Positions 10,777 through 48,286 are shown, counted from the first letter of the stretch. The stretch is DNA of 64,000 nt from a virus (IMGVR_UViG_3300024255_001563:128001-192000); one strand, 5' to 3'. Notes: generated by a model from the letters alone, not told the origin. Numbers and translations: made by a program.

Positions 10777-10805
10777 TTGACATAATTATTAACTGAGTAT
10801 ATAAT
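10777..10805 (+). promoter_or_regulatory. Sigma70-type (early) promoter, perfect consensus
   Basis: TTGACA (10777-10782), 17 nt spacer, TATAAT (10800-10805); RBS GGAG before 10830. Confidence 0.85.
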
Positions 10806-10829
10806 TAATAGTATACTTGGAGATTTCGT

Positions 10830-11177
10830 ATGGATGAAAGATTAGCAAAAGCATTAGAGTTTTCGAATTACATGACAACTCTAAATAATCAAAAACGCAT
10901 TATAAGAGAACAATTTTTAGAAGATTGTGTTCATTATATTAATGGTGGTAAATTTGCAGTTAACAGAGAATTGATTACATTTTGTCAAACACTTGTAAAT
11001 AATCAACAACCTACTGCGGTACTCATTGATGATAACGAAACGCCTATTGAAGTAACAGATTTGAAAAAGTTTCTAGACGACATTCTTGATATTTATTTTA
11101 CTACAACTAATCAGTATTTAGACAAATACAACGAGATAAAAACAAATAGGACAATTGAAGGTTTAATTAACATATGA
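10830..11177 (+). CDS. Hypothetical protein (115 aa)
   Basis: RBS GGAG; ATGA overlap with the next gene. Confidence 0.7.
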   Translation: MDERLAKALEFSNYMTTLNNQKRIIREQFLEDCVHYINGGKFAVNRELITFCQTLVNNQQPTAVLIDDNETPIEVTDLKKFLDDILDIYFTTTNQYLDKYNEIKTNRTIEGLINI

Positions 11178-12028
11178 GTCGCGGCGTACTTTTATTTGCG
11201 CAAAACAATCATACTATTGACTATATTAAACAAGCACTATTTTGCGCAAAGAAAATTAAAAAACATTTAGGACTATCAGTAACTATTGCTACAGATACGC
11301 CTAAGTACCTTTATGAAAAATATCCATACTATTCTAAATATATTGATAATGTAATAAATTTAGATTGGGAAGAATGTTCGCAAAAGCGTGTCTATCAAGA
11401 CGGTACTATGAGTAACAGAAACTTAGAGTGGAGAAATCACAATAGAACAACAGTGTATGACATTACGCCATACGACGAAACTATTGTAATGGACACTGAC
11501 TTTATAATAGGCAATAATCAGTTGTTGCATACATTTGACACTGCTGAAGATTTTTTAATTGTTAAAGATATTACAGATGTTAACCCGGAAAGAAATACTT
11601 CATTTAATAAAATTAGTGATAGAAGTATTGACATGTACTGGGCAACATTATTTTATTTTAAAAAAACAGAACAAACAGAATTATTTTTTAATTTAGTTAC
11701 ACACATTAAAGAAAATTGGTTGTATTATAGATTAGTATATCAGATACCTGATAAGATGTACAGAAACGATTTTAGTTTTAGTATTGCTATACACCTTATG
11801 AATGGAAATCAAAAAACAAACTGGCCAAAACAGCCGCCAGGCAATCTTTGGTTTACTACTGATATGGATGTCTTAATAAAAATGGAAGACGAAGATTATG
11901 TGTTTCTATTAGACAAAAAAGACTGGAAAGGACATTATATTGCTGCATCTGTAAAGGATGCTAGTATACATATTATGAACAAGTTTAGTCTTGATAGAGC
12001 AATTAGTGAGGTGTTAAAAAATGAGTAA
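11174..12028 (+). CDS. GT-A fold glycosyltransferase-like protein (GT8-like), paralogue 1
   Basis: 'TPYDETIVMDTDF' DxD motif; 'RNDFSFSIA' motif; paralogous to the next ORF. Confidence 0.65.
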   Translation: MSRGVLLFAQNNHTIDYIKQALFCAKKIKKHLGLSVTIATDTPKYLYEKYPYYSKYIDNVINLDWEECSQKRVYQDGTMSNRNLEWRNHNRTTVYDITPYDETIVMDTDFIIGNNQLLHTFDTAEDFLIVKDITDVNPERNTSFNKISDRSIDMYWATLFYFKKTEQTELFFNLVTHIKENWLYYRLVYQIPDKMYRNDFSFSIAIHLMNGNQKTNWPKQPPGNLWFTTDMDVLIKMEDEDYVFLLDKKDWKGHYIAASVKDASIHIMNKFSLDRAISEVLKNE

Positions 12029-12860
12029 AGGATTTTGTTTACTTGCACAAAACAATAGCACAACAGATTATGTTCGCCAGGCATATGCTCTCGCCTTAAG
12101 TTTACACAAGTACAATCGTAATCAAAAAATTAGTCTTATTACAAATGACACAATTCCAAAAGAATGGCAAAAAGTGTTTGATCAGATTATTCCGATTCCG
12201 TGGACAGATAGTGCAGAAACTAGTAACTGGAAAATAGAAAATCGTTGGAAAGTTTATCATGCTAGTCCGTACGAGCAAACGATTGTATTGGAAGCAGACA
12301 TGCTTATACTAAGTGACATAACGCACTGGTGGAAAGAGCTAGATAAGTATGAATTGTTTTTTACTAGCAATGTACAAACGTATAGACAAGAAACAGTAAC
12401 TTCTCGGTATTATAGAAAAACATTTGATGCTAATAACCTTCCTAATCTATATAGCGCATTACATTATTTTAAAAAAGGCAATACTGCAAAAGAATTCTAT
12501 ACACTACTAGAGATTATAGTTAATAACTGGGAATTATTTTACAGTAAATATGCAAAAGAGCGTTATCAAAAATGGTGCAGTATCGATTTGTGTGCAGCAA
12601 TTGCTAGTAAAATTTTAGGCAATGAAAAACAAATAACAAATGCAGATAGTTATATAACGTTTACCCACATGAAGACGCATACACAAGCTTGGCAATATGT
12701 TCCTGAACAATGGACTAATGTAATAGGAAAGTACTATCGAAATGATGGAAGTTTAGTGTTAGGTAATTTTGCACAAACCGGAATACTTCATTACGTAGAA
12801 GACAATTTTTTAACAGATAAAATAATAGAGAAATTAAAAGATGCAAAAGTATTATCTTAA
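12021..12860 (+). CDS. GT-A fold glycosyltransferase-like protein (GT8-like), paralogue 2
   Basis: 'SPYEQTIVLEADML' (ExD at the DxD position); 'NLYSALHYFKK'; C-terminal 'GILHYV'. Confidence 0.65.
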   Translation: MSKGFCLLAQNNSTTDYVRQAYALALSLHKYNRNQKISLITNDTIPKEWQKVFDQIIPIPWTDSAETSNWKIENRWKVYHASPYEQTIVLEADMLILSDITHWWKELDKYELFFTSNVQTYRQETVTSRYYRKTFDANNLPNLYSALHYFKKGNTAKEFYTLLEIIVNNWELFYSKYAKERYQKWCSIDLCAAIASKILGNEKQITNADSYITFTHMKTHTQAWQYVPEQWTNVIGKYYRNDGSLVLGNFAQTGILHYVEDNFLTDKIIEKLKDAKVLS

Positions 12861-13407
12861 CTTTAGAGAAGACGGTACAATTTTAAAAGTTGGCAATGTA
12901 CTTGACGAGTCTTCCTTATACATAGAAATAGAAAAATATTTAGTACAAGATTTTGCAAATTGTAAAAAAGAGTTTAAAGACTATCTTGTAGTCCCAAGCG
13001 ATTCTGCAGATGCAAACTATGTAATGAAATTTAGGCATACATCATTAGAAGACTTTGATGTTGACAGAAGTATTTTACAATTGTCTAAAACTCTTATTAG
13101 CGAAAGACTAAACTTTATTATTCTACAAGACCCTAGAAACGGAGTATGGAAAGCAAAATTAACAGACGATTTAAAATCTTTGTTAACAAGCACATCATAT
13201 TATAAAGATAAATCGCATACACTATTTGTCACAGACGAAGATGATCCTAATGTATTACTTGACACACTAGTTGTTGAGTTTTCTGAATTGCTTTATAAAG
13301 ACGAGTGCATAATAAAAAATACTAATAAAGAGGTTGCTCAGAGGACTGATGTGAGTGTATACTGTGGTAAGGTCTTTGAAAATTATAGTCATATTATGGA
13401 GAACTAA
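12841..13407 (+). CDS. Hypothetical protein (188 aa)
   Basis: Intact ORF overlapping both neighbours. Confidence 0.65.
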   Translation: MQKYYLNFREDGTILKVGNVLDESSLYIEIEKYLVQDFANCKKEFKDYLVVPSDSADANYVMKFRHTSLEDFDVDRSILQLSKTLISERLNFIILQDPRNGVWKAKLTDDLKSLLTSTSYYKDKSHTLFVTDEDDPNVLLDTLVVEFSELLYKDECIIKNTNKEVAQRTDVSVYCGKVFENYSHIMEN

Positions 13408-14306
13408 TGCCTAATAAAATTAAAATAATTGATCAAGATATTATCTTTCTTAGTTACGACGAGCCTAACGCAGAAAAAAATTATGCAGACTTGTGTAGTA
13501 AAGTACCGTGGGCAAAACGTGTGCATGGTGTACACGGCAGTGATGCAGCTCACAAAGCTTGTGCAGATTTAAGTGAAACAGAATACTTTGTTACTGTAGA
13601 TGCAGATAATATTGTTGATCCAGAGTTTTTAAATCAAGTAGTTGATTACGAATCGTTAGGGCTGTCAGCAGACCATGTGTTTAGTTGGTGCGGTAAGTTA
13701 CATGTTAACGGACTAATGTACGGCAACGGCGGATTAAAAATGTGGACACGTAAGTTTGTACACAATATGAAGACACATGAACATTCAGAAGACGGCGACG
13801 AACGCGGCAAAGTAGAATTTTGCTTTGACGACAAGTACTATCAGTTCAACGAAAACTTTAGTGTATCCTACACAAACGAAACACCTTGGCAAGCCTGGCG
13901 AGCTGGATTTAGAGAAGGTGTTAAGATGAGTTTGGATCAAGGTGCTAAAGTAGAAGACTTGCGTAAAGTATGGTGGCAAAACTATGATAGGCTTTTAATA
14001 TGGAGTCAAGTAGGTGCTGATGTTAAAAATGGTATATGGAGTATACTAGGCGCACGACAAGGTTGTTATCTAACAAACTGTACACCATGGGACTATGCTA
14101 ACGTGCGTGACTTTGAATGGCTAAACAACTTTTGGGAAACAGAAGTAAAAGATGTTGATCCAAAAGAAGAAGCAGAACGTTTAGGTTTAGAAATACTTAA
14201 AGGTACCGGAGTTGATATTTCTACTAAACCTTTAGACGCAGAACAAAGCAAATTTTTTAAACAAGTCTATCAAAATAGTGCAAGGATACTAAGAAGAGCA
14301 AAATGA
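13407..14306 (+). CDS. GT-A (GT2-like) glycosyltransferase (299 aa)
   Basis: 'IIFLSYDEPNA...AAHKACA...YFVTVDADN' DxD motif; paralogous to the C-terminal domain of 22598-24532. Confidence 0.7.
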   Translation: MPNKIKIIDQDIIFLSYDEPNAEKNYADLCSKVPWAKRVHGVHGSDAAHKACADLSETEYFVTVDADNIVDPEFLNQVVDYESLGLSADHVFSWCGKLHVNGLMYGNGGLKMWTRKFVHNMKTHEHSEDGDERGKVEFCFDDKYYQFNENFSVSYTNETPWQAWRAGFREGVKMSLDQGAKVEDLRKVWWQNYDRLLIWSQVGADVKNGIWSILGARQGCYLTNCTPWDYANVRDFEWLNNFWETEVKDVDPKEEAERLGLEILKGTGVDISTKPLDAEQSKFFKQVYQNSARILRRAK

Positions 14307-14800
14307 ATTTAAATGTAAAAAAATTTAAAGCGTCAATTGACAACTTTTTTGGCTGGGTAAAGAAAACAGAACTAGTAGAGCTAGATGATATTGATGTAAC
14401 AGAAGATCCAGTACGTCCAGAGCTTGATGTAGAATGGCGTACTAGTTATGGACGTAAGATATACGGACTAAAGCACGAAAATGAAATTGAAGGTATTATC
14501 TGCATTGCATATACTAATGATGTACCTAAAAGTGTAAAAGAGTTAGACTTAATGAGTCAAAATGCTCATTTTAAAAATGATGTTAATACGGCAGTTGCTT
14601 ATACAGTATGGAGTCGTAAGCGTGGCGCTGGTAAAGAGATAATACACAAAATAGGCGACTTAATGAAGTCTCGTGATGATATTGAAACACTAGTAACCCT
14701 ATCACCGTTAACGCCAATGGCAACACACTTTCACATACGTAATGGTGCAAAACAAATTGCTATTAGCAATACAACACAGAATTTTAAATATACATTATGA
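14303..14800 (+). CDS. GNAT-like acetyltransferase-fold protein (165 aa)
   Basis: 'AVAYTVWSRKRGAGKEII' resembles GNAT motif A (RxxGxG/A). Confidence 0.45.
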   Translation: MNLNVKKFKASIDNFFGWVKKTELVELDDIDVTEDPVRPELDVEWRTSYGRKIYGLKHENEIEGIICIAYTNDVPKSVKELDLMSQNAHFKNDVNTAVAYTVWSRKRGAGKEIIHKIGDLMKSRDDIETLVTLSPLTPMATHFHIRNGAKQIAISNTTQNFKYTL

Positions 14801-16179
14801 GTAATGAACAGCGTATACAAGTACTAGAAGAAAAACGTGAAAAGATAAACAATGTAAGTTGTTCATTCTGTACGGCTAAATGGTTACAAACTACGCTACT
14901 ATTACAAAACGGTTACAATCACAGTTGTCATCATCCTGCTCCACATAAGATTCCGTTGCACGAAATTGAAGCAAATCCAGCGGCACTACACAACAGTAAG
15001 TTTAAAAAAGAACAACGTGCTAAGATGCTTAAAGGTGAGCGTCCTAAGGAGTGCGGATACTGTTGGAAAATTGAAGACTTAGATAAAAACTATTTTAGTG
15101 ATAGACATTATAAAACAAGTGACTCTTGGGCCTGGGATAGATTTGAAGATATTGCTAAAAGCAATCCACAAGACGATGTGTACCCAAGTTACTTAGAAGT
15201 ATCATTTAGTAATGCTTGTAACTTTGCTTGTGCATACTGTTCACCTGAGATTAGTAGCAAGTGGATGGAAGACGTAAAGCAACACGGAGAATATCCAACC
15301 AAGCACGGTTCGCATAATCTAGACTATTTAAAAGAGTCTGGTAAGATGCCAATACCTAATAGAGAACATAATCCTTATGTAGAAGCATTTTGGAAATGGT
15401 TTCCTGATGCATTACCGCATTTAAAAGTGTTGCGTATCACAGGCGGCGAGCCTACTATGTCAAAAGATACCTGGAAGCTTCTAGATTATCTAATAGAAAA
15501 TCCACGCAAAGGTTTAGACATTTCCATTAATACAAACGGATGTGTAGAAGATAAACTAATTGACAAACTAATTTTAAAAGTTAACAAACTTGCAAAAGTA
15601 GGAGTTAAAGTTGACATATACACTAGTCTTGAAAGCACAGGCCGCCAGGCGGAATATGCTAGAGACGGATTAGTATACTATGATTGGGTTAAAAACATAG
15701 AGCGTTTGCTTTCTGAAACAAAAAGCACAGTTGCAATTATGACAACAATTAACATTCTTAGCTTGCCTACATTCGTCGACTTTATTATGACGGTAATGGA
15801 TTTGCGTAAACTTTATAATACTAGTTTTGAGTGTAATAGAGTGCCGTTGAGTATTAATATTATGCATTGGCCTCCGCATCTTCAATGTACTTTGCTCGAT
15901 AAAGAACAACGTGTAAAGACTGCTAACACTATTGAAACACTTTGCAAAAGTTGGTTAAAATATTATACTAAAGAAAAGTATGCTAGAATATATTTAGAAG
16001 AGTTTGATCAAATACAAAGATTTTGTGATTATTTAAGAACCTCAGAACCAACAGTGGAACACAGAGAAGACTTTGTAAGATACATACAAGCGTACGACAA
16101 AAGAAGAAATAAAGATTTTGCAGAAATATTTCCACAGTATACACATTTATTAGAGGAATGGAATGCCAAAGAAGACTGA
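14797..16179 (+). CDS. Radical SAM protein with N-terminal Cys/His-rich auxiliary domain (type A')
   Basis: CNFACAYC; TGGEP; N-terminal 'FCTAKW...SCHHP...ECGYCW'. Confidence 0.9.
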   Translation: MSNEQRIQVLEEKREKINNVSCSFCTAKWLQTTLLLQNGYNHSCHHPAPHKIPLHEIEANPAALHNSKFKKEQRAKMLKGERPKECGYCWKIEDLDKNYFSDRHYKTSDSWAWDRFEDIAKSNPQDDVYPSYLEVSFSNACNFACAYCSPEISSKWMEDVKQHGEYPTKHGSHNLDYLKESGKMPIPNREHNPYVEAFWKWFPDALPHLKVLRITGGEPTMSKDTWKLLDYLIENPRKGLDISINTNGCVEDKLIDKLILKVNKLAKVGVKVDIYTSLESTGRQAEYARDGLVYYDWVKNIERLLSETKSTVAIMTTINILSLPTFVDFIMTVMDLRKLYNTSFECNRVPLSINIMHWPPHLQCTLLDKEQRVKTANTIETLCKSWLKYYTKEKYARIYLEEFDQIQRFCDYLRTSEPTVEHREDFVRYIQAYDKRRNKDFAEIFPQYTHLLEEWNAKED

Positions 16180-17611
16180 TGAAACGTTACAACAGTATCG
16201 TGATAGAGTATTAGACAATAAAAGTAAGAGTTTCTGCGGAGCCAAGTGGTTTAACGCTACTACCTGGCTTGGTAGTGGTACAACTGCTAGTTGTCATCAC
16301 CCGCCTGCACATAAAATTCCATTAGTAGAAGTAGAAGCAGACTACACTGCTATTCATAATACCAAGCATAAAAAAGAAATGCGCCGCCAAATGCAGACAG
16401 GTGAACGCCCAGCTGAGTGCGAGTATTGTTGGAAAATGGAAGATATGAAAAAGGATGCTGTCAGTGACAGAACCTTTAAAAGCATTATCTATTCTGATGA
16501 AGAGTTACAACGTGCATATGATATGGATCATCATGAGAATGTTAATCTAAAAACATTTGAGATTGCTTTTGATAGAACGTGTAACTTAGCATGTAGTTAT
16601 TGCAATGCAAGTTTCTCAACTACGTGGGCTAAAGATATTAAAAAGAATGGCGAGTACACAAACTTAGTAAGTGATGGCGCTGGTGCATTTAGACAAGACG
16701 GCAGTTGGACACAACCTTACAAAGATGATGACGATAATCCTTACATTCAAGCGTTTTGGAAATGGTGGGATAATGGTTTAGCAGACAGTTTAGAGGAACT
16801 GCGTATCACTGGCGGCGAACCTTTAATGAGCGGAAACACTTGGAAGTTGTTTGATTGGTTTAATAAGCAAGATTCAGATATGCGTTTTGCAATTAATAGC
16901 AATCTAATTGCTAAAGATGCTATTATAGACAAGCTAATTGAGAAAACACAAGGTATGAATCACTTTGAGTTGTATACTAGTTGTGAAGCAGTAGGTGCTC
17001 AAGCAGATTATATTCGTGACGGACTAGATTATGACGAATGGACTAAAAATATTAAACGTATACTAACAGAAGCAAATACTAAAGGCGTACACATTATGAT
17101 GACTATTAACAGTCTTTGCTTGTTTAGTATTACAGAATTCTTAGATGATGTTTACAAACTAAAAGAGCTCACACAAAGTAGAACGCCAACTGTAAGTTTA
17201 AACTTATTACGCTTTCCGAGTTTTCAATCACCGCTGGCATTGCCTAATCATATTAAGGATCATTGCCATAATAAATTGTCAACATGGTATGAAGCTAACA
17301 AAGACAAGCCGGGCTGGAGTGAGTTTGAAAAAGCAAGTATTGAACGTTTAATAGATTACTTGGTAACTGTAGATGCTCCGCATAGACGTACAAGTAACCC
17401 TACTACACTATGGCGTGATTTTAAAACATTCTATGCACAGTATGATGTACGTAGAAACAAAAGCCTAAGTGTATTTCCTAAAATACTAACAGACTGGGTC
17501 GATAGTATTCCAGATACTGATGCAAGCATTATGGAACTTGCAGAAAAAGAAGGTTGGATATTAAAACCTGATAATAAAAACATAGAAATACCTTTGGCAA
17601 CGTATGACTGA
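16163..17611 (+). CDS. Radical SAM protein, type A' paralogue
   Basis: CNLACSYC; TGGEP; N-terminal 'FCGAKW...SCHHP...ECEYCW'. Confidence 0.9.
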   Translation: MPKKTDETLQQYRDRVLDNKSKSFCGAKWFNATTWLGSGTTASCHHPPAHKIPLVEVEADYTAIHNTKHKKEMRRQMQTGERPAECEYCWKMEDMKKDAVSDRTFKSIIYSDEELQRAYDMDHHENVNLKTFEIAFDRTCNLACSYCNASFSTTWAKDIKKNGEYTNLVSDGAGAFRQDGSWTQPYKDDDDNPYIQAFWKWWDNGLADSLEELRITGGEPLMSGNTWKLFDWFNKQDSDMRFAINSNLIAKDAIIDKLIEKTQGMNHFELYTSCEAVGAQADYIRDGLDYDEWTKNIKRILTEANTKGVHIMMTINSLCLFSITEFLDDVYKLKELTQSRTPTVSLNLLRFPSFQSPLALPNHIKDHCHNKLSTWYEANKDKPGWSEFEKASIERLIDYLVTVDAPHRRTSNPTTLWRDFKTFYAQYDVRRNKSLSVFPKILTDWVDSIPDTDASIMELAEKEGWILKPDNKNIEIPLATYD

Positions 17612-18914
17612 TAAAATTGGACCTTACTTTTGCACAGCACCCTGGACACATACTTACGTTAGCCCGCAAGGCGAGCGTAGGTTGTGTTGTGCTAGTAGAG
17701 AAGATGCAAGTTTTCAAAAGCAGTATATAGATGCAGGTGATAAAGACAACACTGAATTTGATCCAATAACACTCGAAGAACATTGGAACAGCGATTATAT
17801 GAAAGATATTCGTAAGCGTATGTTAGCCGGAGAAAAACTAAGCCAGTGCGATGTGTGTAATAATCAAGTATTAAATTTACATACATACAAAAACTATTTT
17901 ACTAATACACTATTTCCGCACAAAGTCGAAGACATAATAGCTAGTACAAAAGAAGACGGCTACACAACTATGCAACCAATTAGTTTTGATTATCGTATAA
18001 GCAATCTTTGTAATTTTAAATGTCGCATGTGCGGTGAACAACTTAGTTCAAGTTGGGAAACTGAAAAGATTAAACATAATGTAGTTAACTACAAACGTGA
18101 AAAATGGATGCAACCAGACACACGAAAGAAGATTGCTACATTTCAAAAAGAAGTTCTCGAAACAGAACTACAAACAGCAGTTGACAAAGGCATTGTAGAG
18201 GAGTTATACTGGGTAGGCGGCGAGCCACTTATGTATGATATACATTGGCGTATTATGCAACAGCTAGTAGACGAAGAAAAAAGCCAAGACGTAGTTGTAC
18301 GTTATAATACAAACTTGAGCAGAACACACTACAAGAATTATAAACTGTACGACATGCTAGATAACTTCAAACGTGTTAACCTTTGTGCTAGTATAGACGG
18401 GGTAGGCGAAGTCGGCGAATACATTAGAACAGGACTCAAATGGGACGAGTGGCTACAAAACTTCAAAGATGGCATGTTTCTTATCAATAAGTATGGAGAC
18501 GATGCATTAGTATTTGATGTTACACTAACAACTCCGGGATTGTTTGATTTGAAACGTATGTTTGATGTAGTTACAGAATTAGATGTTAAGAGTTACTTTA
18601 AAATTACATTTGCATTTGACCCTAGTGTTCTAATGAGTCCTATGTGTTTGCCAAGAGAAGTATTAGATGAGCAAATACACAAACTACTAGACTACATTAA
18701 GCCTAGAGTTACACACAAAACTCGTGTGTACCAAGAAACATTAGAAAACATGCTTGAACGCAAAACGTTTGAAGAAGAATACACTGACTATAAAGATGGT
18801 TGGAGACGAGGTAAAAAGAATATAATGTTTATAGAAAGCATCAGAACGCAAGACGTTACATTTAGAGACACTCTTAGTGACGCAGGTAAAGAATGGTGGG
18901 ATAGCATTGAGTAA
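17604..18914 (+). CDS. Radical SAM protein with N-terminal twitch/SPASM-like domain (type A)
   Basis: CNFKCRMC; VGGEP; N-terminal 'FCTAPWTH...LCC...QCDVC'. Confidence 0.9.
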   Translation: MTDKIGPYFCTAPWTHTYVSPQGERRLCCASREDASFQKQYIDAGDKDNTEFDPITLEEHWNSDYMKDIRKRMLAGEKLSQCDVCNNQVLNLHTYKNYFTNTLFPHKVEDIIASTKEDGYTTMQPISFDYRISNLCNFKCRMCGEQLSSSWETEKIKHNVVNYKREKWMQPDTRKKIATFQKEVLETELQTAVDKGIVEELYWVGGEPLMYDIHWRIMQQLVDEEKSQDVVVRYNTNLSRTHYKNYKLYDMLDNFKRVNLCASIDGVGEVGEYIRTGLKWDEWLQNFKDGMFLINKYGDDALVFDVTLTTPGLFDLKRMFDVVTELDVKSYFKITFAFDPSVLMSPMCLPREVLDEQIHKLLDYIKPRVTHKTRVYQETLENMLERKTFEEEYTDYKDGWRRGKKNIMFIESIRTQDVTFRDTLSDAGKEWWDSIE

Positions 18915-22581: not shown

Positions 22582-22590
22582 GTTTATAAT
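22562..22590 (+). promoter_or_regulatory. Sigma70-type promoter, perfect consensus
   Basis: TTGACA (22562-22567), 17 nt, TATAAT (22585-22590), immediately before the ATG at 22598. Confidence 0.8.
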
Positions 22591-22597
22591 ATACATA

Positions 22598-28004: not shown

Positions 28005-28013
28005 GTAGATATA

Positions 28014-35248: not shown

Positions 35249-35253
35249 TTTCT

Positions 35254-38687: not shown

Positions 38688-39262
38688 TTAGGATACACCG
38701 TTAAGTTAAAGGTTAATCTAGTAGAATGTCCCATATTGCCTCCGCCGTGCCAGATATCTTCGCCGTCGTGTTTGAACATATCTCCTTTTTTGTAGTCTTT
38801 AAGTATTTTATTGTCATAAAGGAACAAATGTCCTCTTTTATAATCTTGTAAAGGTATCAAGTATCTTTCAACATTGTTTTTGTTTGACATTGCTACGCCG
38901 TCAACATACTCTTTTCCGTAATCTGCATAATCTTGATGTACTGGTTGTACCATACCTGGGCGTAGTTTCATAAAAAACCATTCGTGTTCATGAGGTATGT
39001 CAAATGGCATTTCAACTTTAAAAGGAAGTTCGTGTTGTTTATATGTAATACAACAGACCCAATCAGTTCCCCATTCTTCTTTTCCGTCTGCAATTCTAAC
39101 TCCGCTATTAGGATCCTCGCCTCTTATAGCGGCGTCAACCATACCAGGCTCTTCCTCGGCTGTAGCATCTCTTGGAAAACAAGAACCGTCTACAGAAAGA
39201 AAGTGTTCTATCCATTCGTCTTTGATCCAGTCTGCATAATTGTTTACAACCTTTAATGCCAT
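38684..39262 (-). CDS. 2OG-Fe(II) oxygenase-like cupin, tandem paralogue 1
   Basis: 'FMKLRPGMVQPVHQD...WHGGGNMG..TRLTFNLT'. Confidence 0.75.
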   Translation of the reverse strand: MALKVVNNYADWIKDEWIEHFLSVDGSCFPRDATAEEEPGMVDAAIRGEDPNSGVRIADGKEEWGTDWVCCITYKQHELPFKVEMPFDIPHEHEWFFMKLRPGMVQPVHQDYADYGKEYVDGVAMSNKNNVERYLIPLQDYKRGHLFLYDNKILKDYKKGDMFKHDGEDIWHGGGNMGHSTRLTFNLTVYPK

Positions 39263-41153: not shown

Positions 41154-41840
41154 ATGAAGTATTACTATTATTACAACGATGTTCCGGGAGAAGGCTTGTC
41201 TAGAAATAATCTAATCTATACAAGTTTAATGTCGGAAGATAACACTACATTTGTACAATGGTATCATAATGATACCACGTATCATGCTGGACAAAATCAA
41301 GTAATTGATCCTGCACTGATGCAAGAAAAATTTGAAAGAGAAATTAAGTATCTAACATTAATGTACAAAAAGTTTCCTCAACATGTTCCGGAAATAAAAG
41401 ATATTGACTACAACGAAAAGAAAATTTATTTACTTGTAGACGGAAAAGATTTTTGGAACAGAGCAAACTGTACAACAAAAAATTACGATAGCGTTTTACC
41501 TGACTGGCAAGAACAAATTAAAGAAATAGTATCGGCGCACAGAAGTTTAGGACTATGGAAATACAGTATGCATCCTAGTAGTTTCTTTGTAGTAGGCGAA
41601 AAATTAAAAAGTATTAATTACTTCTTTACATACGAAGCAAAAGAAAGTAATATAAGCATACGCGATGTAGAAAGTCATATTTACAGTACTCGTCAAGAAG
41701 AACTTAAAAAATATCTAACTCCATTAGGTATAGATTGGAATACCCCGCAGTCTTGGGAAATATTAAACACATTGTGTTGGGAAAGTTTTAGAACTAATTA
41801 TCCTAACAATTTTATTGAGGATGTTAAATGTATAAATTAG
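41154..41840 (+). CDS. Kinase-fold protein (228 aa), paralogue of the 35921 N-terminal domain
   Basis: 'FEREIKYLTLM...PEIKDIDY..KKIY...PDWQEQI..I...SMHPSSFF...LKSINYF'. Confidence 0.6.
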   Translation: MKYYYYYNDVPGEGLSRNNLIYTSLMSEDNTTFVQWYHNDTTYHAGQNQVIDPALMQEKFEREIKYLTLMYKKFPQHVPEIKDIDYNEKKIYLLVDGKDFWNRANCTTKNYDSVLPDWQEQIKEIVSAHRSLGLWKYSMHPSSFFVVGEKLKSINYFFTYEAKESNISIRDVESHIYSTRQEELKKYLTPLGIDWNTPQSWEILNTLCWESFRTNYPNNFIEDVKCIN

Positions 41841-42391
41841 TACCGTTCGATAAAACGCTTGACTTACAAGAGTTTTATAAAGAAGCACAAAAACGAGGCC
41901 ATTTAAACAACGCCAGTCAGCAAGCAATGGTTGATTGTTTTCGCAACGAAGAAAAATCTCAAGTATGGATATTATATAAAGACAATCGTGCAATCGGTAG
42001 TGTAGCAGCACACACTTTTCCAGAAATGGGACCTAATGCTTATAGAATACTAACACGCACTTGTGTGCTTGATGGTGTAATTCCAAACAACGGCAAAGGG
42101 CTAGGTACAGGACGTTGGTATATTCAACAGCACCAAAATACTACTTGTCAGTTTTATGTTCCAAAAATGATTGAGTGGTGCGGCATTGATAGTAAAATGT
42201 ATGCTACAAGTAATCAATTAGACGGCGGCAGTCAAAGGAAAGTACATAATATCTACTTTCCACTACTTGAAAAACAGGGTGAGTGGGAAAAGTATTCTAC
42301 TATAGAATACAGAGGGTGTACACAGCAAGTTTGGAAATTTAATCCAACTGTGTTTTTAGAAAATTTAAAAAGGTACCCTAAATGGCATTAA
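41828..42391 (+). CDS. GNAT-like acetyltransferase (187 aa)
   Basis: 'WILYKDNRAIGSVA...YRILTRTCVL' strand pattern and Gly-rich 'NGKGLGTG' acetyl-CoA loop. Confidence 0.5.
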   Translation: MYKLVPFDKTLDLQEFYKEAQKRGHLNNASQQAMVDCFRNEEKSQVWILYKDNRAIGSVAAHTFPEMGPNAYRILTRTCVLDGVIPNNGKGLGTGRWYIQQHQNTTCQFYVPKMIEWCGIDSKMYATSNQLDGGSQRKVHNIYFPLLEKQGEWEKYSTIEYRGCTQQVWKFNPTVFLENLKRYPKWH

Positions 42392-43824
42392 AATTCAAAA
42401 CATCTCATAACAAGAAAATTGCATGTTGTATTGTAGACAGGCACAACGAATTACCATCTACATGGGGAGTATCAATATCAAAAAATATTTCTGATTATAT
42501 GATACATAGATTTGCTTTGTTTGATTTTGATATCTATATTAGTACAGACGAAGACGATTTGTTGCGTACAGTATCTAAAAATGATTTTTATTCTCACGCA
42601 GTTGTTGTATCTACAGGTCTTTATTTTGGATTAAGTGATAGAATTTTTAATGCTATTGAAGAAAAATGTAAAGAAGATTTTTTTGTAGCAGGACATGTGT
42701 TACATAGAGGTTCCGAATCAGGGTTTTTTGCAAATAGTTATTATGAGTTACATCATCAGCTATATCTTATAAATTTAAAAGATTATAGAGATATCGGATG
42801 TCCGTCTGTAGGACAGCAATCTCTAGACGAAACCCATAAACAAATTGAGCCTATTCGAAGTAAGGAATACTTGTTTGATGATCACGAAGTTCCTGTGTGG
42901 ATAAAACCTGGATCAGTTGAAAAAGAATATAAAGTAAAATTACATGGTTATAATATTATAAGTAAAGGCTTAGAATATGATAAAAAATTTATTGATATAG
43001 GTAACAACATTAGAAATAATAAGCAATATTTCTATTATGAATGGGATCATGTATTTGTAAATCAACTACAGCAAGTTTATTATGATCACTTATTTGTAAA
43101 CAACTTCTTTGCCAGTTGGAATAGTGATCAGCATAAAACAAATTTTAATTTCGAAGGACCTGTTGAGCAATATGTTACAGTAGGTATAGGAGTATACTGG
43201 GTTACTAATTTATGCAATTTAGGAATAACAGAAAATACTAAAGTTATTTTTACTGATATAAACAATAATACATTAGACTTTATGAAAAAGTTAGTCGAAG
43301 AATGGGACGGAAATGATTATCATTTATTTTATAAAAATAATCTTCCTAGACTTCCTGCAGGGTTTGATAAAAACATTGACCAATATATTGATTACACAGA
43401 GCAAGAGTGGAATAAGTTTAAAGAACAATACCCAAATTGGTTAAAACTTTGGAACAAAGTTAAAAACTTAGAGTTTGATTATATTCTAATAGATTATATG
43501 GCAAAGTATGATTTAAACTGGCTCGATAATTCTAAAAAGACGTTTATAAATATAAGTGATGTATTCACACATAGTCCATATACACCTACACAAAGTTTTA
43601 AATATCGGGTAGGTTGCGAAAATAGATTAATTAAAAATCTTCAACAGTTTAATCCAGATATACATTTACACATGACATCGCGAGCAACTGACGGGTTTGA
43701 TGATTCGAAACGTATTATGAGCGGTCCTGTTAAGTCGTTTAGTTTGTCTAACATTAATGATCTATTGCAGCCAACTTGGCATTCAACTACAGACGAATGG
43801 CGTGTTCTTAGACCTCTTGTCTAA
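42382..43824 (+). CDS. Hypothetical protein (480 aa), possibly two-domain
   Basis: Intact ORF coupled to its neighbours. C-terminal half has Rossmann-like 'VIFTDIN'; no confident family. Confidence 0.55.
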   Translation: MALKFKTSHNKKIACCIVDRHNELPSTWGVSISKNISDYMIHRFALFDFDIYISTDEDDLLRTVSKNDFYSHAVVVSTGLYFGLSDRIFNAIEEKCKEDFFVAGHVLHRGSESGFFANSYYELHHQLYLINLKDYRDIGCPSVGQQSLDETHKQIEPIRSKEYLFDDHEVPVWIKPGSVEKEYKVKLHGYNIISKGLEYDKKFIDIGNNIRNNKQYFYYEWDHVFVNQLQQVYYDHLFVNNFFASWNSDQHKTNFNFEGPVEQYVTVGIGVYWVTNLCNLGITENTKVIFTDINNNTLDFMKKLVEEWDGNDYHLFYKNNLPRLPAGFDKNIDQYIDYTEQEWNKFKEQYPNWLKLWNKVKNLEFDYILIDYMAKYDLNWLDNSKKTFINISDVFTHSPYTPTQSFKYRVGCENRLIKNLQQFNPDIHLHMTSRATDGFDDSKRIMSGPVKSFSLSNINDLLQPTWHSTTDEWRVLRPLV

Positions 43825-44477
43825 ACTCTTATTTCGTGAGTTTCGTAATGTCCTGTGGTTCCTGTTAATAATGCAGCAGTGTTAATAGCTTCTTTCCATT
43901 CATTAGTACTGTCGTGTCTAGCAACAATTAAATGATATCTATCTTCGTCGCTATGATTATATACAGCATGTTCGTAACTAATGTTCATTGCATAGACTCC
44001 ACCAGGCTCCATATAAAAAGTTTGCCCATCTCCCCAATGCCATAAACATTCCTTTGGATTATTTAACGGTATATTAATATTTTCTAATATTTTGTAATTA
44101 GTATCGCTGTGTAATCCAATGAACCCACCAGCTTCGACAAGCATAAGTCTTACTCTGCCAAATCTATTACTAGGAAATTTATTCTGTAGCCAATTAATAA
44201 TTGTCGGACATTCTGTAGCCGCCTTTGTCCAAACAAAATCTTTTGCGGCTTCGACAGCATTAGTATAACCGTAATCTTGCCAACTTTCGTGACGGTCTTC
44301 TGATAATCCGTACAGTGCTAAACTTTTCCAACCTGCATGAGTTTCGTCATCTCTATGGCTAGTAAACCTATTCTTAAGAGCAACAGCTTCTTTATGCATT
44401 TTCTCGTACGGAACAGGTATATCTAGTTTCAAATATTTTGCTTCTGAAAAATAATAATCTTTATATAAATGTTGCAT
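43821..44477 (-). CDS. 2OG-Fe(II) oxygenase, Asp/Asn beta-hydroxylase-like
   Basis: 'RVRLMLVEAGGFIGLHSD...NIPL...YEHAVYN...DRYHLIV'. Start trimmed to 44477. Confidence 0.8.
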   Translation of the reverse strand: MQHLYKDYYFSEAKYLKLDIPVPYEKMHKEAVALKNRFTSHRDDETHAGWKSLALYGLSEDRHESWQDYGYTNAVEAAKDFVWTKAATECPTIINWLQNKFPSNRFGRVRLMLVEAGGFIGLHSDTNYKILENINIPLNNPKECLWHWGDGQTFYMEPGGVYAMNISYEHAVYNHSDEDRYHLIVARHDSTNEWKEAINTAALLTGTTGHYETHEIRV

Positions 44478-45540
44478 CTGGTAACTTAAAGTTGTTAATC
44501 TCAGCAGTTCGAACAAAATCTGTAATTTCTTCAACATATTTTTGTGCATATTCTTTTTGAAAATAAGGTTGATATGCGCAGTCCTGTAACGTTGAATAGT
44601 CATGTTGTACTCGATGACATAGACGATCTTTAATGTCGCCTAGTCGTCTGTGTAGTGTAATAGAGTTATCAAACAGTAAAAAGTCACCGTCGTTTTTATA
44701 CCAGTGATCGTATTGATATTTCTCTACAAACAGACCTTTATTAATTTCGTCAAATACTTTATTGCTATCTTCTTTGCTCAGTCCTTTAATTCTATGCACA
44801 GTATTAATTGAATAATGTAATCCTTTAATGCCACCGGGACTTTGAATAACCATCGGTATTTCAACATCGTCTTCTGGACACATATTAGCATGCATAACTT
44901 CGTCTTGTTCCATCCGTAGTCCAGGATTAATTTTCCCCGGTGTAAATCTATGCATAAGAATCATTTCGTCTAGTTCGCTTCTAAAACTTTCAGAAACATT
45001 TTCATAATAGTCAGTAGTAGTTAAGAACCCAGTAGAACTGCCTACAGTATTTTCGCTTGCAAGTAACGCAACACCAGGAGTAAAGGTAAGTGTACCACTT
45101 TCGTTTGAATGCCAAAGCAGCTCGCCTTCTGCAAACATGCCTAAAGGATTTCCGTTTTCGTCACGCTTACCAGTAACCCGCATTACATTTTTCCCGTCAA
45201 CGCTTGTTTCTTGCATACGTGCAATATTAGTTAAACGTACTTTATCAATATCGTCAACTGACGAATCATTAGCAAAAGCCATTCTAATAACTTGACTAAA
45301 TGTTTTACCTGGATATTTTTTAAGGATGTTATAGCGAATGTTATAACGTGTGTCGCCCCACTTAGTACACCAGTCGGACTGATCTTCCCACTTTAAGTTA
45401 CAATCTCTAATGATAGTAACAAGATTTTGCATATGAATTTTTCCAATTTCGAGCCATTCTTCATCTGTTAAATTCTCAAAATTAACGCCGTCAATGAACA
45501 CTCCGTAGTTTCCAAGGCCTGGAATTTTTGATATTTTCAT
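44461..45540 (-). CDS. TauD/TfdA-family dioxygenase-like protein
   Basis: 'LLWHSNE', 'GSSTGFLTT', 'HWYKNDGDFLLFDNSITLHRR'; RBS GGAG before ATG 45540. Confidence 0.8.
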   Translation of the reverse strand: MKISKIPGLGNYGVFIDGVNFENLTDEEWLEIGKIHMQNLVTIIRDCNLKWEDQSDWCTKWGDTRYNIRYNILKKYPGKTFSQVIRMAFANDSSVDDIDKVRLTNIARMQETSVDGKNVMRVTGKRDENGNPLGMFAEGELLWHSNESGTLTFTPGVALLASENTVGSSTGFLTTTDYYENVSESFRSELDEMILMHRFTPGKINPGLRMEQDEVMHANMCPEDDVEIPMVIQSPGGIKGLHYSINTVHRIKGLSKEDSNKVFDEINKGLFVEKYQYDHWYKNDGDFLLFDNSITLHRRLGDIKDRLCHRVQHDYSTLQDCAYQPYFQKEYAQKYVEEITDFVRTAEINNFKLPDATFI

Positions 45541-45571
45541 TTTATCTCCATTCATTATAAGTCATTCTATA

Positions 45572-45594: not shown

Positions 45595-46461
45595 ATGGAC
45601 AATCTTGAAATTTATCAACGTAACAAATATCAAATTGCATATAGACTTTTACTTGTATTCGGTATGATAGGTGCTGGAGCATTCGTTTTTTATAGCATAC
45701 TTTTAGATTTTTCTAACCAATGGTATTGGTTAATTATTGCGTTAGTTTATGCAATAACTGTAGAAGAAACTTTTGCACATAGAATATGTGCTCATAATGT
45801 TTTTAAAATAAACACTAAATCTTGGACATATAAAACTTTAACATGGTTGAATAGTGTAAATCAGTCACACGGGCCTGTAAGATATCTCTGTATGTGGCAC
45901 CCTGCACATCATATGTATTCTGATCAAGGGAAAGCAGATAATGTAAACTGGAAAGAATTCTGGTACGGTTCTGCAAGTACATTACCTTTAGAATTTTTAT
46001 GTGACTTCCAAATACCTAAGCCAGAAAAAGTTATTGATAACGGATACAGACAGTGCTCTAATATTATCGATGATCCTTTTACAAGATTTTGCGAAAAGTA
46101 TTCTTTAATAATTAGTACATGCACTATAGCAGTTCTTATTTTAGTTGCACCTATAATATTATTTAACGTAATATTTTTAGGAAGATTTATTATGATGTTA
46201 GGAATGATGGCAGCTGGAATAGCACATTTAAAAGACTTTCCTTTAACTTACCGCTTAAAAGATACCAATGACGATTCTAACAACAATTTAATATTACATT
46301 ATTTGTTCTTAGGAGTGTTCAGTGGCTTACTACAAAATAATCATCACAGTTCGCCTAAAGCAATAAATTTAGGTTTTAAATGGTGGGAAGTTGACACTAG
46401 CGCACCAATAGCATATATCCTTAAATTTTTAATGGAAGACCGACAACCTTCAAACGCATAA
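45595..46461 (+). CDS. Membrane fatty-acid desaturase (delta-9-like) (288 aa)
   Basis: His boxes 'HRICAH', 'HPAHH', 'QNNHH' plus 'WWEVD'; hydrophobic segments. Confidence 0.85.
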   Translation: MDNLEIYQRNKYQIAYRLLLVFGMIGAGAFVFYSILLDFSNQWYWLIIALVYAITVEETFAHRICAHNVFKINTKSWTYKTLTWLNSVNQSHGPVRYLCMWHPAHHMYSDQGKADNVNWKEFWYGSASTLPLEFLCDFQIPKPEKVIDNGYRQCSNIIDDPFTRFCEKYSLIISTCTIAVLILVAPIILFNVIFLGRFIMMLGMMAAGIAHLKDFPLTYRLKDTNDDSNNNLILHYLFLGVFSGLLQNNHHSSPKAINLGFKWWEVDTSAPIAYILKFLMEDRQPSNA

Positions 46462-46464: not shown

Positions 46465-46488
46465 CAATATAAAATTTGGAGTACTCAT

Positions 46489-47412
46489 ATGAAACTTTTA
46501 GACACTATTAAAAAACTAATTTATCTTGCACCATGCAGATGCGGCAGAACTTATTATCATTGTAATATTCAACCTTCAGCTGATAATATAAAATTAACAT
46601 TTACACCAACTAACAAATATCTTTTTATTGATCCTAGAAGAGAAGATGAAGAATTTATGCCTGAAAGATTTCATGCATTTGAAAAGGCAGAACATATTGG
46701 TATTGCTATAGGTCAAATAGAATTTTTCTTAAAAAGCAAAGGAATCGAGTACAGTGTCGACGGAGATTCAGTTGTTGAGTTAGTAATTAATAGTGCTAAT
46801 ATAGATTCAAATGACGATCTAAGCGTATATGCAACACACAAACATGCACATCGAAGCTTTGACATGGATCAAAAAGTTGATGCTAATACACTAGATGTTC
46901 TTGAAAACAAGATTGATACATTCCTTAGTTCTTATAACGGACATAAAATACTTGTAGACGATCCTGCTGTTGTTAAAAAATTAAGAGCGTTAGCAGTATA
47001 TTGGGAGTCTTCGGGCGATATGTGCGACGGTGCACCACAAATGAAAGCTCCACTAATACTAAGTGTTCCTCCAAAAGAATACGATTTAATACATTATTTA
47101 CATATGGGTAGATTATATGCTGATATTGCTCTTACAGCAATTAGTGCAGGTTACCAATTTGCATACAGCAATACATTTAATTATCCTGATCCAAGAGTAA
47201 AAAGAGTACAAGAACATTTATTTCTCGACTACGATGCATACACAGTCGATACAGTTGTACCTAGATCTTTCATGTGTATAGGCAAAGCATTAGATCCTAA
47301 TAAGCCATATAACTGGGTAGCAGAAGAAAACATATATAACGACGACATTCAACCTAGTTGCATACTTGTAACTAAAGAATTTGTACAAGTTAAGGAACTT
47401 GAGGTTGTTTGA
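46489..47412 (+). CDS. Nitroreductase-like protein (307 aa)
   Basis: C-terminal half 'HAHRSFD...APLIL...MGRLYADIALTAISAGY' follows the nitroreductase fold pattern; N-terminal 'YLAP'. Confidence 0.45.
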   Translation: MKLLDTIKKLIYLAPCRCGRTYYHCNIQPSADNIKLTFTPTNKYLFIDPRREDEEFMPERFHAFEKAEHIGIAIGQIEFFLKSKGIEYSVDGDSVVELVINSANIDSNDDLSVYATHKHAHRSFDMDQKVDANTLDVLENKIDTFLSSYNGHKILVDDPAVVKKLRALAVYWESSGDMCDGAPQMKAPLILSVPPKEYDLIHYLHMGRLYADIALTAISAGYQFAYSNTFNYPDPRVKRVQEHLFLDYDAYTVDTVVPRSFMCIGKALDPNKPYNWVAEENIYNDDIQPSCILVTKEFVQVKELEVV

Positions 47413-47737
47413 AGTAAAAGTTAAATTTCAACGGAACTCTACTGATCAACGTTGGTGGCACAGTGACGAAGATATTTTTGATTACATCCAAGAAGAATAT
47501 GTTGACACAGGAAAAATTTTAGAGCAATCGATTATAATATCAGAAGATATGTATAAAAAGGAACATACTATTGTTTTTGATTGCGAAGAGTCTTTTAACG
47601 AATGGCTTACTGACGAAGTCTTAGTGTACGAAAGACAACGTATGCGCAGATATCATAATATAAGTAGGATAGCACATTCTATAAACGCTTATGATGTAAA
47701 AGTTACGAAAGACTTGTATTCAGTATACGAGCATTAA
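47405..47737 (+). CDS. Hypothetical protein (~110 aa)
   Basis: TTG 47405 with upstream AAGGAA; intact ORF. Confidence 0.55.
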   Translation: MFEVKVKFQRNSTDQRWWHSDEDIFDYIQEEYVDTGKILEQSIIISEDMYKKEHTIVFDCEESFNEWLTDEVLVYERQRMRRYHNISRIAHSINAYDVKVTKDLYSVYEH

Positions 47738-47743
47738 TATACA

Positions 47744-48286
47744 TTATTTTTTAGCAAGCCAATACTTTTTTAATTCTTCTGAAGTATTATCTATGTATAG
47801 ATACGGAATTTCAACTTTACTTTCTATAAGCCACTTAATAGTAGTTACTACATCTACAGGGTCTAAGCGCATATAATCTTTATTTGTACTTTTTAAACCT
47901 CCCACAGTTATGTGTGTAGTTTTTAAAGTTTCTGAATTTAATAGTAAACTTAAATCTTTAAGTTCTTTTTTAATCTTGGCCGCCGGCGGATCAATCCAAC
48001 TCCATTGGTCAAATTCTAATATACTTCCGATATTAAAAATTTTTCCCTTACTAAGTTTGTTTGCAGCAATCTTTAGTAGTGTAAGTTGTCCGTCTGGTAT
48101 TAACTGTGAATGATTTATAAACACATCAAACGTGTGAATAATGGAAGAAAATTTTTCTAAGCCTTCAGGTGATAATAAATCATAACCTGAAGATCTAGAA
48201 ATAAACTTTGTGTTTGGATAAACTTCTTTAAATTCTTTTGCTATACCGTTATCATTAGGATTGCCGGTACACAGTATCCTAAGCAT
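47744..48286 (-). CDS. Atypical short-chain dehydrogenase/reductase-like protein (180 aa)
   Basis: 'ILCTGNPNDNGIA', 'SRSSGYDL', 'DVFINHS', 'IFNIGS'; lacks the YxxxK Tyr. Confidence 0.6.
   Translation of the reverse strand: MLRILCTGNPNDNGIAKEFKEVYPNTKFISRSSGYDLLSPEGLEKFSSIIHTFDVFINHSQLIPDGQLTLLKIAANKLSKGKIFNIGSILEFDQWSWIDPPAAKIKKELKDLSLLLNSETLKTTHITVGGLKSTNKDYMRLDPVDVVTTIKWLIESKVEIPYLYIDNTSEELKKYWLAKK

Follow-up and report, generated by a model that had tools for sequence, protein, structure and literature searches.

A 37-kb island of radical SAM, oxygenase and glycosyltransferase genes adjoining the tail-fibre genes of a marine jumbo phage as a candidate pathway for a tailored glycan

In a 64,000-nucleotide stretch of viral DNA, IMGVR_UViG_3300024255_001563:128001-192000 (further called the window), an island of 41 open reading frames (ORFs) extends from position 10830 to 48286, in which genes for radical S-adenosylmethionine (SAM) enzymes, oxygenases and glycosyltransferases are closely packed behind a tail-fibre module. 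The source record measures 200,843 bp, of which the window represents bases 128,001-192,000, and has a CheckV completeness of ~57%. The coding fraction of the island is 0.993, with 32 of the 40 junctions between ORFs overlapping or abutting and a widest intergenic gap of 142 bp, and its GC content is 0.339 compared to 0.361 in the remaining genome. All 13 radical SAM genes of the record are located in the island, and a whole-record Pfam scan gave no match to the radical SAM domain (PF04055) outside it; the block is real, far beyond chance. The original prediction, made from the sequence alone, had described about 40 tightly coupled genes in 37 kb, 13 of them for radical SAM enzymes, as a large, uncharacterised and expanded tailoring system physically tied to fibre genes and devoid of a precursor peptide. 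This description stands: exactly 13 radical SAM ORFs were counted, each with a CX3CX2C motif, and no small precursor-type gene was found among the 41 ORFs or in the gaps between them. The census of enzymes is largely right as well, with one correction at the boundary, where the first ORF, g10830, probably encodes a fibre chaperone and not an enzyme.

The fibre genes which had been proposed to bracket the island are present on both sides. On the left, g3149 possesses a Pfam tail Collar domain and PHROG tail-fibre matches, and on the right the isolated gene g48290m matches Mtd_N. Within these brackets the island consists of two parts, a conserved left cassette of 10 kb and a lineage-specific right part of 27 kb. 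For comparison, 82 related IMG/VR loci were collected, whereas at least 472 exist. A syntenic left cassette, composed of a fibre gene, a fibre-distal gene (homologue of g8817/g9741), a g10830-like gene, two paralogues of ~280 amino acids (aa), a g13407-like gene and an array of NF033640 radical SAM genes, occurs in ~40-54 of the 82 loci, and homologues of the fibre module (clusters 6 and 4) lie directly upstream of it in ~40. In the window the order is fibre genes, promoter, g10830-like gene, two GT8-like glycosyltransferase genes, a GT-A glycosyltransferase gene and the array of N-terminal-twitch (N_Twi) radical SAM genes. The comparison of gene neighbourhoods that had been suggested as a check thus found the orthologues linked and not scattered, their order being kept in ~40 loci. 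In total, the cassette family has at least 472 matches in IMG/VR and more than 6,000 related proteins. From position 21271 rightward, almost no homologues were detected among the 82 loci, and the right 27 kb is therefore a lineage-specific addition.

The conserved core encodes three glycosyltransferase-type proteins. Two of these, g11174 and its paralogue g12021, are ~280 aa each and GT8-like: the family profile of g12021 matches glycogenin (GT8) with E 1.2e-4, over roughly its first 100 residues only, the family profile of g11174 reaches only E 0.6 and neither protein has a Pfam hit, and both families have kept a DxD and a C-terminal H...K (His/Lys) motif. The pair is present in 49-50 of the 82 loci. 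The third protein, g13407, is assigned to the GT-A fold. Its top Foldseek matches are the capsid-glycosylating PBCV-1 A64R and the peptide S-glycosyltransferases ThuS and SunS (E ~2e-5), VIA returned Z 9-10 over ~140 residues to many diverse GT-A enzymes, and D65-x-D67 is invariant in its family, which occurs in 54 of the 82 loci. We can only infer transferase chemistry for g13407, because nucleotidyltransferases of the same fold also score ~Z 9 against it. A PDB sequence search with the g13407 family gave no usable match and Atlas yielded viral hypothetical clusters only. Together with the C-terminus of g22598 in the right part, these proteins account for the at least four glycosyltransferase-like genes of the original prediction; its claim that no scaffold-building enzyme is present does not hold, since three such proteins belong to the conserved core.

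Ahead of the glycosyltransferase genes lies g10830, whose family is found in 41 of the 82 loci and there invariably follows the fibre-distal gene and precedes the GT8-like pair. Its structure model (pLDDT 94) is a helix / beta-hairpin / helix / beta-hairpin / helix unit that resembles many DUF4376 proteins in AFDB (TM 0.5-0.7, E 1e-3 to 5e-2); sequence-level Pfam did not report DUF4376. Among solved structures, Foldseek found no PDB match at E <= 0.001, and in a wide structure search the closest was prefoldin beta at a non-decisive Z of 7.6, the helical matches all remaining below Z 8. DUF4376 is a domain of experimentally defined tail-fibre chaperones of the Alteromonas phages V22 and A5 (PMC7289586, PMC10579305). 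Like these chaperones (V22 gp27, A5 gp9), g10830 is a small protein encoded directly after a fibre gene; unlike them, it consists of the bare domain only (115 aa) and heads an enzyme operon behind a sigma-70 promoter. Judged from its model, g10830 is probably a fibre chaperone rather than an enzyme. A complex prediction for g9741 with g10830 scored 0.00, which speaks neither for nor against binding.

Radical SAM enzymes were assigned on the presence of a CX3CX2C motif together with a match to the core domain (PF04055); 11 of the 13 score above the Pfam cut-off in the whole-record scan, and the remaining two are assigned by NF033640 scores above 300 bits. Four groups can be distinguished, namely seven NF033640 members, three short viperin/STM4011-like enzymes, a pair with a C-terminal SPASM-type domain and one Tes/TrsS-like enzyme with a zinc ribbon. 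The seven members score 305-410 bits against NF033640 (N_Twi_rSAM, cut-off 170), compared to 18-51 bits for the other six, which are non-members. All seven share an N-terminal four-cysteine auxiliary domain followed by CX3CX2C: Pfam SPASM is found at ~residues 6-90, ahead of the Radical_SAM core, and four invariant N-terminal cysteines (C6, C25, C66, C69) precede C120/C124/C127. Five of them make up the array of the cassette and are 22-37% identical to each other but 45-92% to their positional orthologues in other phages. Orthologues at 40% identity or more occur in 80 loci for g20084, 73 for g16163, 58 for g17604, 24 for g14797 and 19 for g18877, with top identities of 84-92%, and the related loci contain a median of five NF033640 members. 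Because each paralogue has its own orthologues elsewhere, the duplications are old and the copies non-redundant. Five such orthogroups are as expected of what would be successive steps in one multi-step pathway. In BtrN and other sugar-acting twitch/SPASM radical SAM enzymes, an auxiliary [4Fe-4S] domain is likewise combined with a radical SAM core and, for BtrN, the substrates are carbohydrate-like; the auxiliary domain of BtrN is, however, C-terminal instead of N-terminal and the similarity is marginal (E ~3e-5 over ~60 residues). A search with g20084 against bacterial genome contigs gave three partial matches only, to the SPASM domain. Among cultured phages, gene 202 of Ralstonia phage RsoM2USA (L106:11944-13326) shares 59% identity with g16163 along its entire length, and the Vibrio phages K566/K567 contain four N_Twi radical SAM paralogues (K566 at L100:14971-21707); in the annotations of RsoM2USA and K566 the family members appear as hypothetical proteins or simply as radical SAM proteins.

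To place the N_Twi family in a cellular context, bacterial relatives were taken as proteins whose top NCBIfam match is NF033640; they reach only ~155-181 bits, compared to 305-410 bits in the island, and often possess extra GT4 or CBM domains. A Methylomagnum megaplasmid encodes such a protein next to GT2, GT4 and GT39 glycosyltransferases, an ABC transporter, UbiA, a polyprenyl synthase, AsnB, a methyltransferase, a PhyH dioxygenase and a sulfotransferase. On a 2.9-Mb chromosome the locus comprises Wzm, Wzt with Wzt_C, multi-domain GT2/GT4 proteins, polysaccharide deacetylases and a CBM protein, and the N_Twi enzyme itself is fused to an EpsE-like GT4 domain. Another bacterial locus combines an NF033640 gene with GT2 genes and an RmlABCD-like dTDP-sugar set, and in yet another 4-5 tandem N_Twi genes accompany UbiA, GT32-like, PhyH, methyltransferase and GT2 genes. 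Fusions of bacterial N_Twi proteins to EpsE-like GT4 or to CBM_4_9 were seen in P0190, P0165, P0168, P0176 (~855 aa), P0160, P0170 and P0181 and at the locus L102:10001-12562. In the related phage loci, genes within 10 kb encode a carbamoyltransferase (38/82), an NAD-dependent sugar epimerase/dehydratase (22/82), a DegT aminotransferase (21/82) or a UDP-glucose/GDP-mannose dehydrogenase (17/82). The genome under study itself contains, outside the island, genes for a KdsB-type CMP-sugar synthetase and an NAD-dependent sugar epimerase/dehydratase (G000:C1:9001-9558, G000:C1:194026-194586), and because of these the absence of nucleotide-sugar genes inside the island is not a pathway gap. With glycosyltransferases in the core and nucleotide-sugar enzymes in related islands, the proposal that the system only modifies a macromolecule that is already present is not supported.

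The cassette is predicted to be a separately promoted unit that is read by a host-type RNA polymerase. It starts with P1, a perfect TTGACA-17-TATAAT sequence, which in the nearest relatives (L021-L027, L041) is kept at the same place at 11 of 12 positions. A second perfect sequence, P2, lies directly before g22598, and a third, P3, with a TG extension, lies on the minus strand inside g34371m, where, given the revised start of this gene, it would drive only the downstream PP-loop and radical SAM genes. In the whole record 13 perfect TTGACA-N16/17-TATAAT sites occur, compared to 0.47 expected from shuffling, which suggests a separate class of host-type consensus promoters at the starts of transcription units. 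The other perfect sites in the window, at 52587-52614, 59053-59081 and 63376-63404 (minus strand), lie on the side of replication and nucleotide metabolism, where an ORF of 448 aa (51207-52553, minus) matches PHROG 1314 (labelled HNH endonuclease) with E 2.8e-115 and has a perfect consensus promoter just upstream. By analogy to T4-like phages, promoters of the sigma-70 type suggest early expression. The T4 late motif, TATAAATA, is present at 8783, just before the fibre-distal gene g8817, and is not enriched in the window (6 sites compared to 11.6 expected). Metatranscriptome contigs from three seawater RNA libraries match window positions 5001-25000, covering fibre genes and island, at an identity of at least 99%; they are compatible with expression and carry no level, strand or start information, and DNA carry-over is possible. 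The features of the locus are listed in Table 1.

Table 1. Promoters, fibre genes and island genes in the window, with the basis of each assignment
Feature	Position	Strand	Basis or remark
Tail-fibre module: g3149, g5242, g7240 (fibre), g8817, g9741 (paralogous, fibre-distal)	3149..10769	+	PHROG tail-fibre/tail-collar
P1, perfect TTGACA-17-TATAAT	10777..10805	+	ends 25 bp before the g10830 ATG
g10830, 115 aa, DUF4376-like/prefoldin-like	10830..11177	+	structure model
g11174 and g12021, paralogous GT8-like glycosyltransferases	11174..12860	+	profile, paralogy, motifs
g12841, 188 aa	12841..13407	+	weak match to a function-unknown PHROG; homologues in 5 loci
g13407, GT-A fold glycosyltransferase	13407..14306	+	model pLDDT 90.4
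g14303, GNAT-fold acyltransferase-like (MCD C-terminal domain)	14303..14800	+	PF05292 E 2.5e-5, above cut-off
g14797, g16163, g17604, g18877, g20084, five N-terminal-twitch radical SAM enzymes	14797..21274	+	NF033640
g21271, 436 aa, virus-only family	21271..22581	+	no HMM match; Atlas neighbours viral
P2, perfect TTGACA-17-TATAAT	22562..22590	+	directly before g22598
g22598, 644 aa, N-terminal 420 aa unassigned, C-terminal GT-A domain	22598..24532	+	paralogy to g13407
Short viperin/STM4011-like radical SAM enzyme (1 of 3)	24492..25502	+	Pfam/NCBIfam, paralogy
g25499 methyltransferase-like, g26097 SGNH-like	25499..26915	+	weak profile; motif only
Two paralogous radical SAM enzymes with C-terminal SPASM-type domain	26916..29096	+	41% mutual identity; Pfam, NCBIfam
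Sixth N-terminal-twitch radical SAM enzyme	29093..30505	+	NF033640, 390 bits
g30502 (+) and g31523 (-), convergent short radical SAM enzymes	30502..32479	+/-	Pfam/NCBIfam, paralogy
Seventh N-terminal-twitch radical SAM enzyme	32421..33686	-	NF033640, ~330 bits
g33676m PP-loop ATPase-like, g34371m PLP-enzyme-like	33676..35213	-	weak profiles; motifs
P3, perfect consensus with TG extension	34767..34795	-	inside g34371m
g35086 Asp/Asn-hydroxylase-like, g35921 with C-terminal 2OG/cupin-like domain	35254..37120	+	weak Pfam (g35086); motif
Four tandem ~175-aa paralogues, probable Fe/2OG-type oxygenases	37115..39262	-	paralogy, motif
g39262m	39262..40068	-	no hits
g40070m, thirteenth radical SAM enzyme, N-terminal HMPTM-type zinc ribbon, Tes/TrsS-like	40070..41116	-	profile matches
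g41154, g41828, g42382	41154..43824	+	no hits
g43821m Asp/Asn beta-hydroxylase family, g44461m TauD family, Fe/2OG oxygenases	43821..45555	-	Pfam
g45595, membrane desaturase/hydroxylase-like	45595..46461	+	His boxes
g46489, g47381 (+), g47744m (-, Rossmann-like N-terminus by motif)	46489..48286	+/-	no family assignment
g48290m, isolated fibre/receptor-binding-type gene	48290..49696	-	Pfam Mtd_N E 4.8e-11

In this phage the conserved cassette is extended by a second promoter unit and by several divergent units, which encode a further GT-A fusion, another eight radical SAM enzymes belonging to four types, oxygenases and acyl-, methyl-, PP-loop- and PLP-like proteins. For the sixth N_Twi radical SAM enzyme, the 82 related loci contain no orthologue that reaches 40% identity, and a pattern scan gave no close IMG/VR relative of g40070m. 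At the junction with the cassette, g21271 belongs to a family of which, according to Atlas structural neighbours, members in other phages have a methyltransferase or a sugar epimerase/dehydratase as fusion partner. Residues 420-635 of g22598 are 31% identical to g13407 and show a weak GT2 match, and the N-terminal part has viral hypothetical Atlas neighbours only. Several of the further enzyme types which had been named in the original prediction are retrieved, with differing support. For the methyltransferase (g25499) and the PP-loop protein (g33676m) this is at the level of weak Pfam matches, to the spermine-synthase fold and to PF01171 with TilS_N, respectively; orthologues of g25499 head the radical SAM array in 11 loci. 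Four others are retrieved at motif level only: the SGNH protein (g26097, a G-x-S-x-x-S-G first-block motif), the pyridoxal-phosphate (PLP) enzyme (g34371m, D-G-A-W and S-x-S-K motifs and no match among PDB sequences), the desaturase (g45595, three hydrophobic segments with HxxxxH and HxxHH motifs and no Pfam match) and the SDR-like or Rossmann protein (g47744m). From the two GNAT-like proteins one was confirmed, g14303 of the cassette (MCD_C, PF05292).

Compared to the nine predicted iron/2-oxoglutarate (Fe/2OG) oxygenase domains, we count ~8 probable ones, three by Pfam and five by motif with marginal profiles. The Pfam matches are strong for g43821m (PF05118, E 4.6e-16) and g44461m (PF02668, E 8.2e-16) and weak for g35086. 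The other five are formed by the four tandem small paralogues and the C-terminus of g35921, a family with 136 representatives in which H-x-D...H...R is kept over 47 members and whose profile gives marginal matches to AtsK and a beta-hydroxylase (E 0.07). The N-terminal half of g35921 (35921-37120) and g41154 (41154-41840) are paralogous as well (29% over 175 residues) and represent a domain without detectable relatives, g35921 being a fusion of this g41154-type domain to a small oxygenase-like domain. The longest-ORF calls at 34371-35348 (minus) and 35086-35928 (plus) have 262 bp in common on their two strands, and the true starts are likely 35111 or 35213 (minus) for g34371m and 35254 or 35263 (plus) for g35086. 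PDB sequence searches gave no usable match for g46489, g41154 and g42382, and PHROGs, applied to the 20 ORFs otherwise without assignment, added three matches, all to function-unknown families. Only one of the 41 island proteins, g45595, is membrane-embedded, the other 40 being soluble.

The major capsid protein of the record, located outside the window (G000:C1:89856-90803; L105:1426-2604, minus), is of the T4 gp23 type and ~70% identical to that of the Rak2-like jumbo myoviruses Serratia BF, Yersinia fHe-Yen9-04, Erwinia pEa_SNUABM, Vibrio 2.275.O and Sinorhizobium Phosso. On account of this identity the contig is taken to be a fragment of a marine jumbo myovirus of ~350 kb. The same sequence recurs across many seawater metagenomes, the phage is present in more than 19 runs of seawater DNA (2018 and 2024), and a megablast of the island with its flank against 50,697 phage records gave no matches.

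We propose that the island encodes a cytoplasmic pathway which assembles and tailors a glycan, most likely with the phage's own fibres as acceptor, a proposal that in our judgement stands about even. Its parts are not equally firm: that the pathway makes or tailors a glycan is fairly probable, and the virion as acceptor, the weakest step, is a tentative choice that falls somewhat short of even. Building and tailoring a glycan is favoured because glycosyltransferases belong to the conserved core and nucleotide-sugar enzymes to related islands; a cytoplasmic protein acceptor is favoured because there is one membrane protein only, no exporter or initiating transferase was found in the ~57% complete record, the position behind the fibre genes is invariant and the first gene is chaperone-like. 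The coupling to fibres also agrees with the top Foldseek matches of g13407, among which are enzymes that glycosylate a viral capsid protein and peptides. In the proposed pathway, the transferases would assemble a short sugar chain, with nucleotide sugars coming from the host and from phage genes outside the island. One distinct C-H-directed step would then fall to each radical SAM orthogroup, be it epimerisation, oxidation, deoxygenation, or C-methylation / C-C bond formation, and hydroxyl, acyl, methyl or amino groups would be introduced by oxygenases and transferases. As acceptors, the fibre proteins are the most likely; they would be modified in the cytoplasm, either prior to assembly or in its course, and the product would shape host recognition or virion stability. 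As target, we rank a virion glycan as favoured, the host envelope as possible and DNA as least likely.

Several observations weigh against this proposal. The promoters of the cassette belong to the class found on the replication side and not to the TATAAATA type seen before a fibre gene, and this class would suit an early modification of host surface or DNA at least as well as virion decoration. The structural matches of g13407 to GT-A enzymes have a low TM (0.3-0.4) and define no acceptor, and the glycan link is based on gene neighbourhoods and fusions, which are consistent across independent sources. In the literature no characterised N_Twi (NF033640) enzyme was found that would provide a reaction or a substrate. 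Twitch/SPASM radical SAM enzymes and Asp/Asn hydroxylases are classic modifiers of peptides. Furthermore, ~14 ORFs are without match in Pfam, NCBIfam, PHROGs or PDB sequences, and export or hydroxymethylase genes that are missing from the ~57% complete record may be located in the absent remainder.

An alternative target is the host envelope, of which lipopolysaccharide, O-antigen or capsule would be altered during infection, either blocking superinfection or preventing progeny from re-adsorbing to lysed cells. Such a function was proposed for the glycosyltransferases in the host recognition cluster of pelagimyophages (PMC7029224), and it would agree with the early expression suggested by the sigma-70 promoters, with cellular N_Twi relatives in Wzm/Wzt O-polysaccharide loci, with the KdsB-type gene of the genome and with two island proteins, a hydroxylase of the LpxO family (PF05118) and a membrane protein of desaturase-like type. 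The 200,843-bp record (~57% complete), however, contains no initiating phosphoglycosyltransferase, flippase, ABC exporter or ABC-2 exporter, nearly all island proteins (40/41) are soluble, and envelope remodelling leaves the strict adjacency to fibre genes and to a fibre-chaperone-like gene unexplained; we therefore regard it as unlikely. The fibre adjacency and the operon shared with the chaperone-like gene would be accounted for when the fibres were modified as in ribosomally synthesised and post-translationally modified peptides (RiPPs), with radical SAM enzymes and hydroxylases acting on fibre residues by epimerisation, cross-linking or beta-hydroxylation and glycosylation as only one step. 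The nearest solved relatives of the radical SAM enzymes include the twitch/SPASM enzymes SkfB, YydG and sactipeptide maturases, PF05118 enzymes hydroxylate proteins and g13407 resembles the peptide S-glycosyltransferases ThuS and SunS. Yet a PqqD/RRE domain was detected in none of the ORFs, the g10830 model has no significant Foldseek match to a solved structure and none above Z 8, there is neither a precursor-type small gene nor a gap larger than 142 bp, the bacterial family members are fused to GT4/CBM domains and embedded in polysaccharide loci, and related phage islands contain nucleotide-sugar enzymes, which together make this explanation less probable still.

Two further explanations seem very improbable to us. 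A free, diffusible sugar-derived or aminoglycoside-like metabolite that manipulates the host or competitors is suggested by the presence of BtrN, a twitch enzyme of aminoglycoside biosynthesis, among the profile matches, and comparable genes of a cyanophage have been read as 'antibiotic synthesis' (PMC12801897); the island lacks an export gene, however, a product set free by lysis would come only at the end of infection, and the three glycosyltransferase types and the link to fibre genes rather indicate a product that is polymeric or bound to protein. Marginally less probable even is a hypermodification of phage DNA in which a glycan or other adduct on the bases would evade restriction. The promoter class is that of replication and nucleotide-metabolism genes, radical SAM, PLP and PP-loop enzymes occur in base-modification pathways, and hypermodification of DNA with glycans by phage glycosyltransferases is known (work cited in PMC12619734). 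Against it, no thymidylate-synthase-family hydroxymethylase (PF00303) is encoded in the ~57% complete record, the conserved neighbours are fibre genes and not replication genes, and the cellular relatives are located in polysaccharide loci.

Of the systems described so far, the host recognition cluster (HRC) that lies between VrlC and the neck protein gp14 in pelagi- and cyanomyophages comes closest; it is a hypervariable island which combines fibre genes with glycosyltransferase genes and radical SAM cassettes (Zaragoza-Solas et al. 2020, PMC7029224). The two islands are alike in their large size, their variable content, their location in the structural region and their mixture of tail-fibre genes, glycosyltransferase genes and radical SAM cassettes; the island described here differs in that its phage is Rak2-like by capsid, its enzyme load is far larger and a conserved core cassette with its own promoter could be resolved. 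A dozen radical SAM genes in a marine myovirus have a precedent in TARA_ERS488813_N000010, a T4-like marine environmental genome with 12 such genes, described as rich in Fe-S proteins and discussed only with regard to Fe-S supply (Nishimura et al. 2017, PMC5332604); the likeness is one of description, as the paper is without pathway or context analysis. For virion glycosylation, capsid and tail glycosylation of mycobacteriophages has been reported (Freeman et al. 2023, as cited in PMC12619734), and in these phages as well as in chlorovirus PBCV-1 cytoplasmic GT-A enzymes, encoded by the virus beside its structural genes, decorate proteins of the virion, A64R being the top Foldseek match of g13407. 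Those systems, however, make do with a few transferases, and tailoring by radical SAM enzymes or oxygenases is absent from them. A literature search combining radical SAM, jumbo phage and glycosyltransferase gave nothing. The island is thus a very large form of a type of phage island that is already described, though functionally unexplored. New here are the division into core and addition, the five orthogroups in fixed order, the GT-A and GT8-like assignments, the chaperone-like first gene and the promoter class, next to the bacterial glycosyltransferase fusions of the radical SAM family, the Rak2-like lineage and the family members in cultured phages.

Hundreds of environmental phage contigs carry the cassette. 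It might represent a widespread and undescribed virion-maturation system, in which large aquatic phages glycosylate their own tail fibres and subsequently rewrite the glycan by radical C-H chemistries that are not yet described for sugars linked to proteins, although in this broad form we consider the idea doubtful. Lineage-specific additions of oxygenases and radical SAM enzymes would then diversify the fibre coat in a host-recognition arms race. The defined minimal cassette, its promoter class and the cultured phages with family members offer practical handles. If the product indeed decorates the fibres, abundant phages of the ocean would have a further, new level at which host range is determined and virions are protected, and the cassette would provide a source of new radical carbohydrate chemistry.

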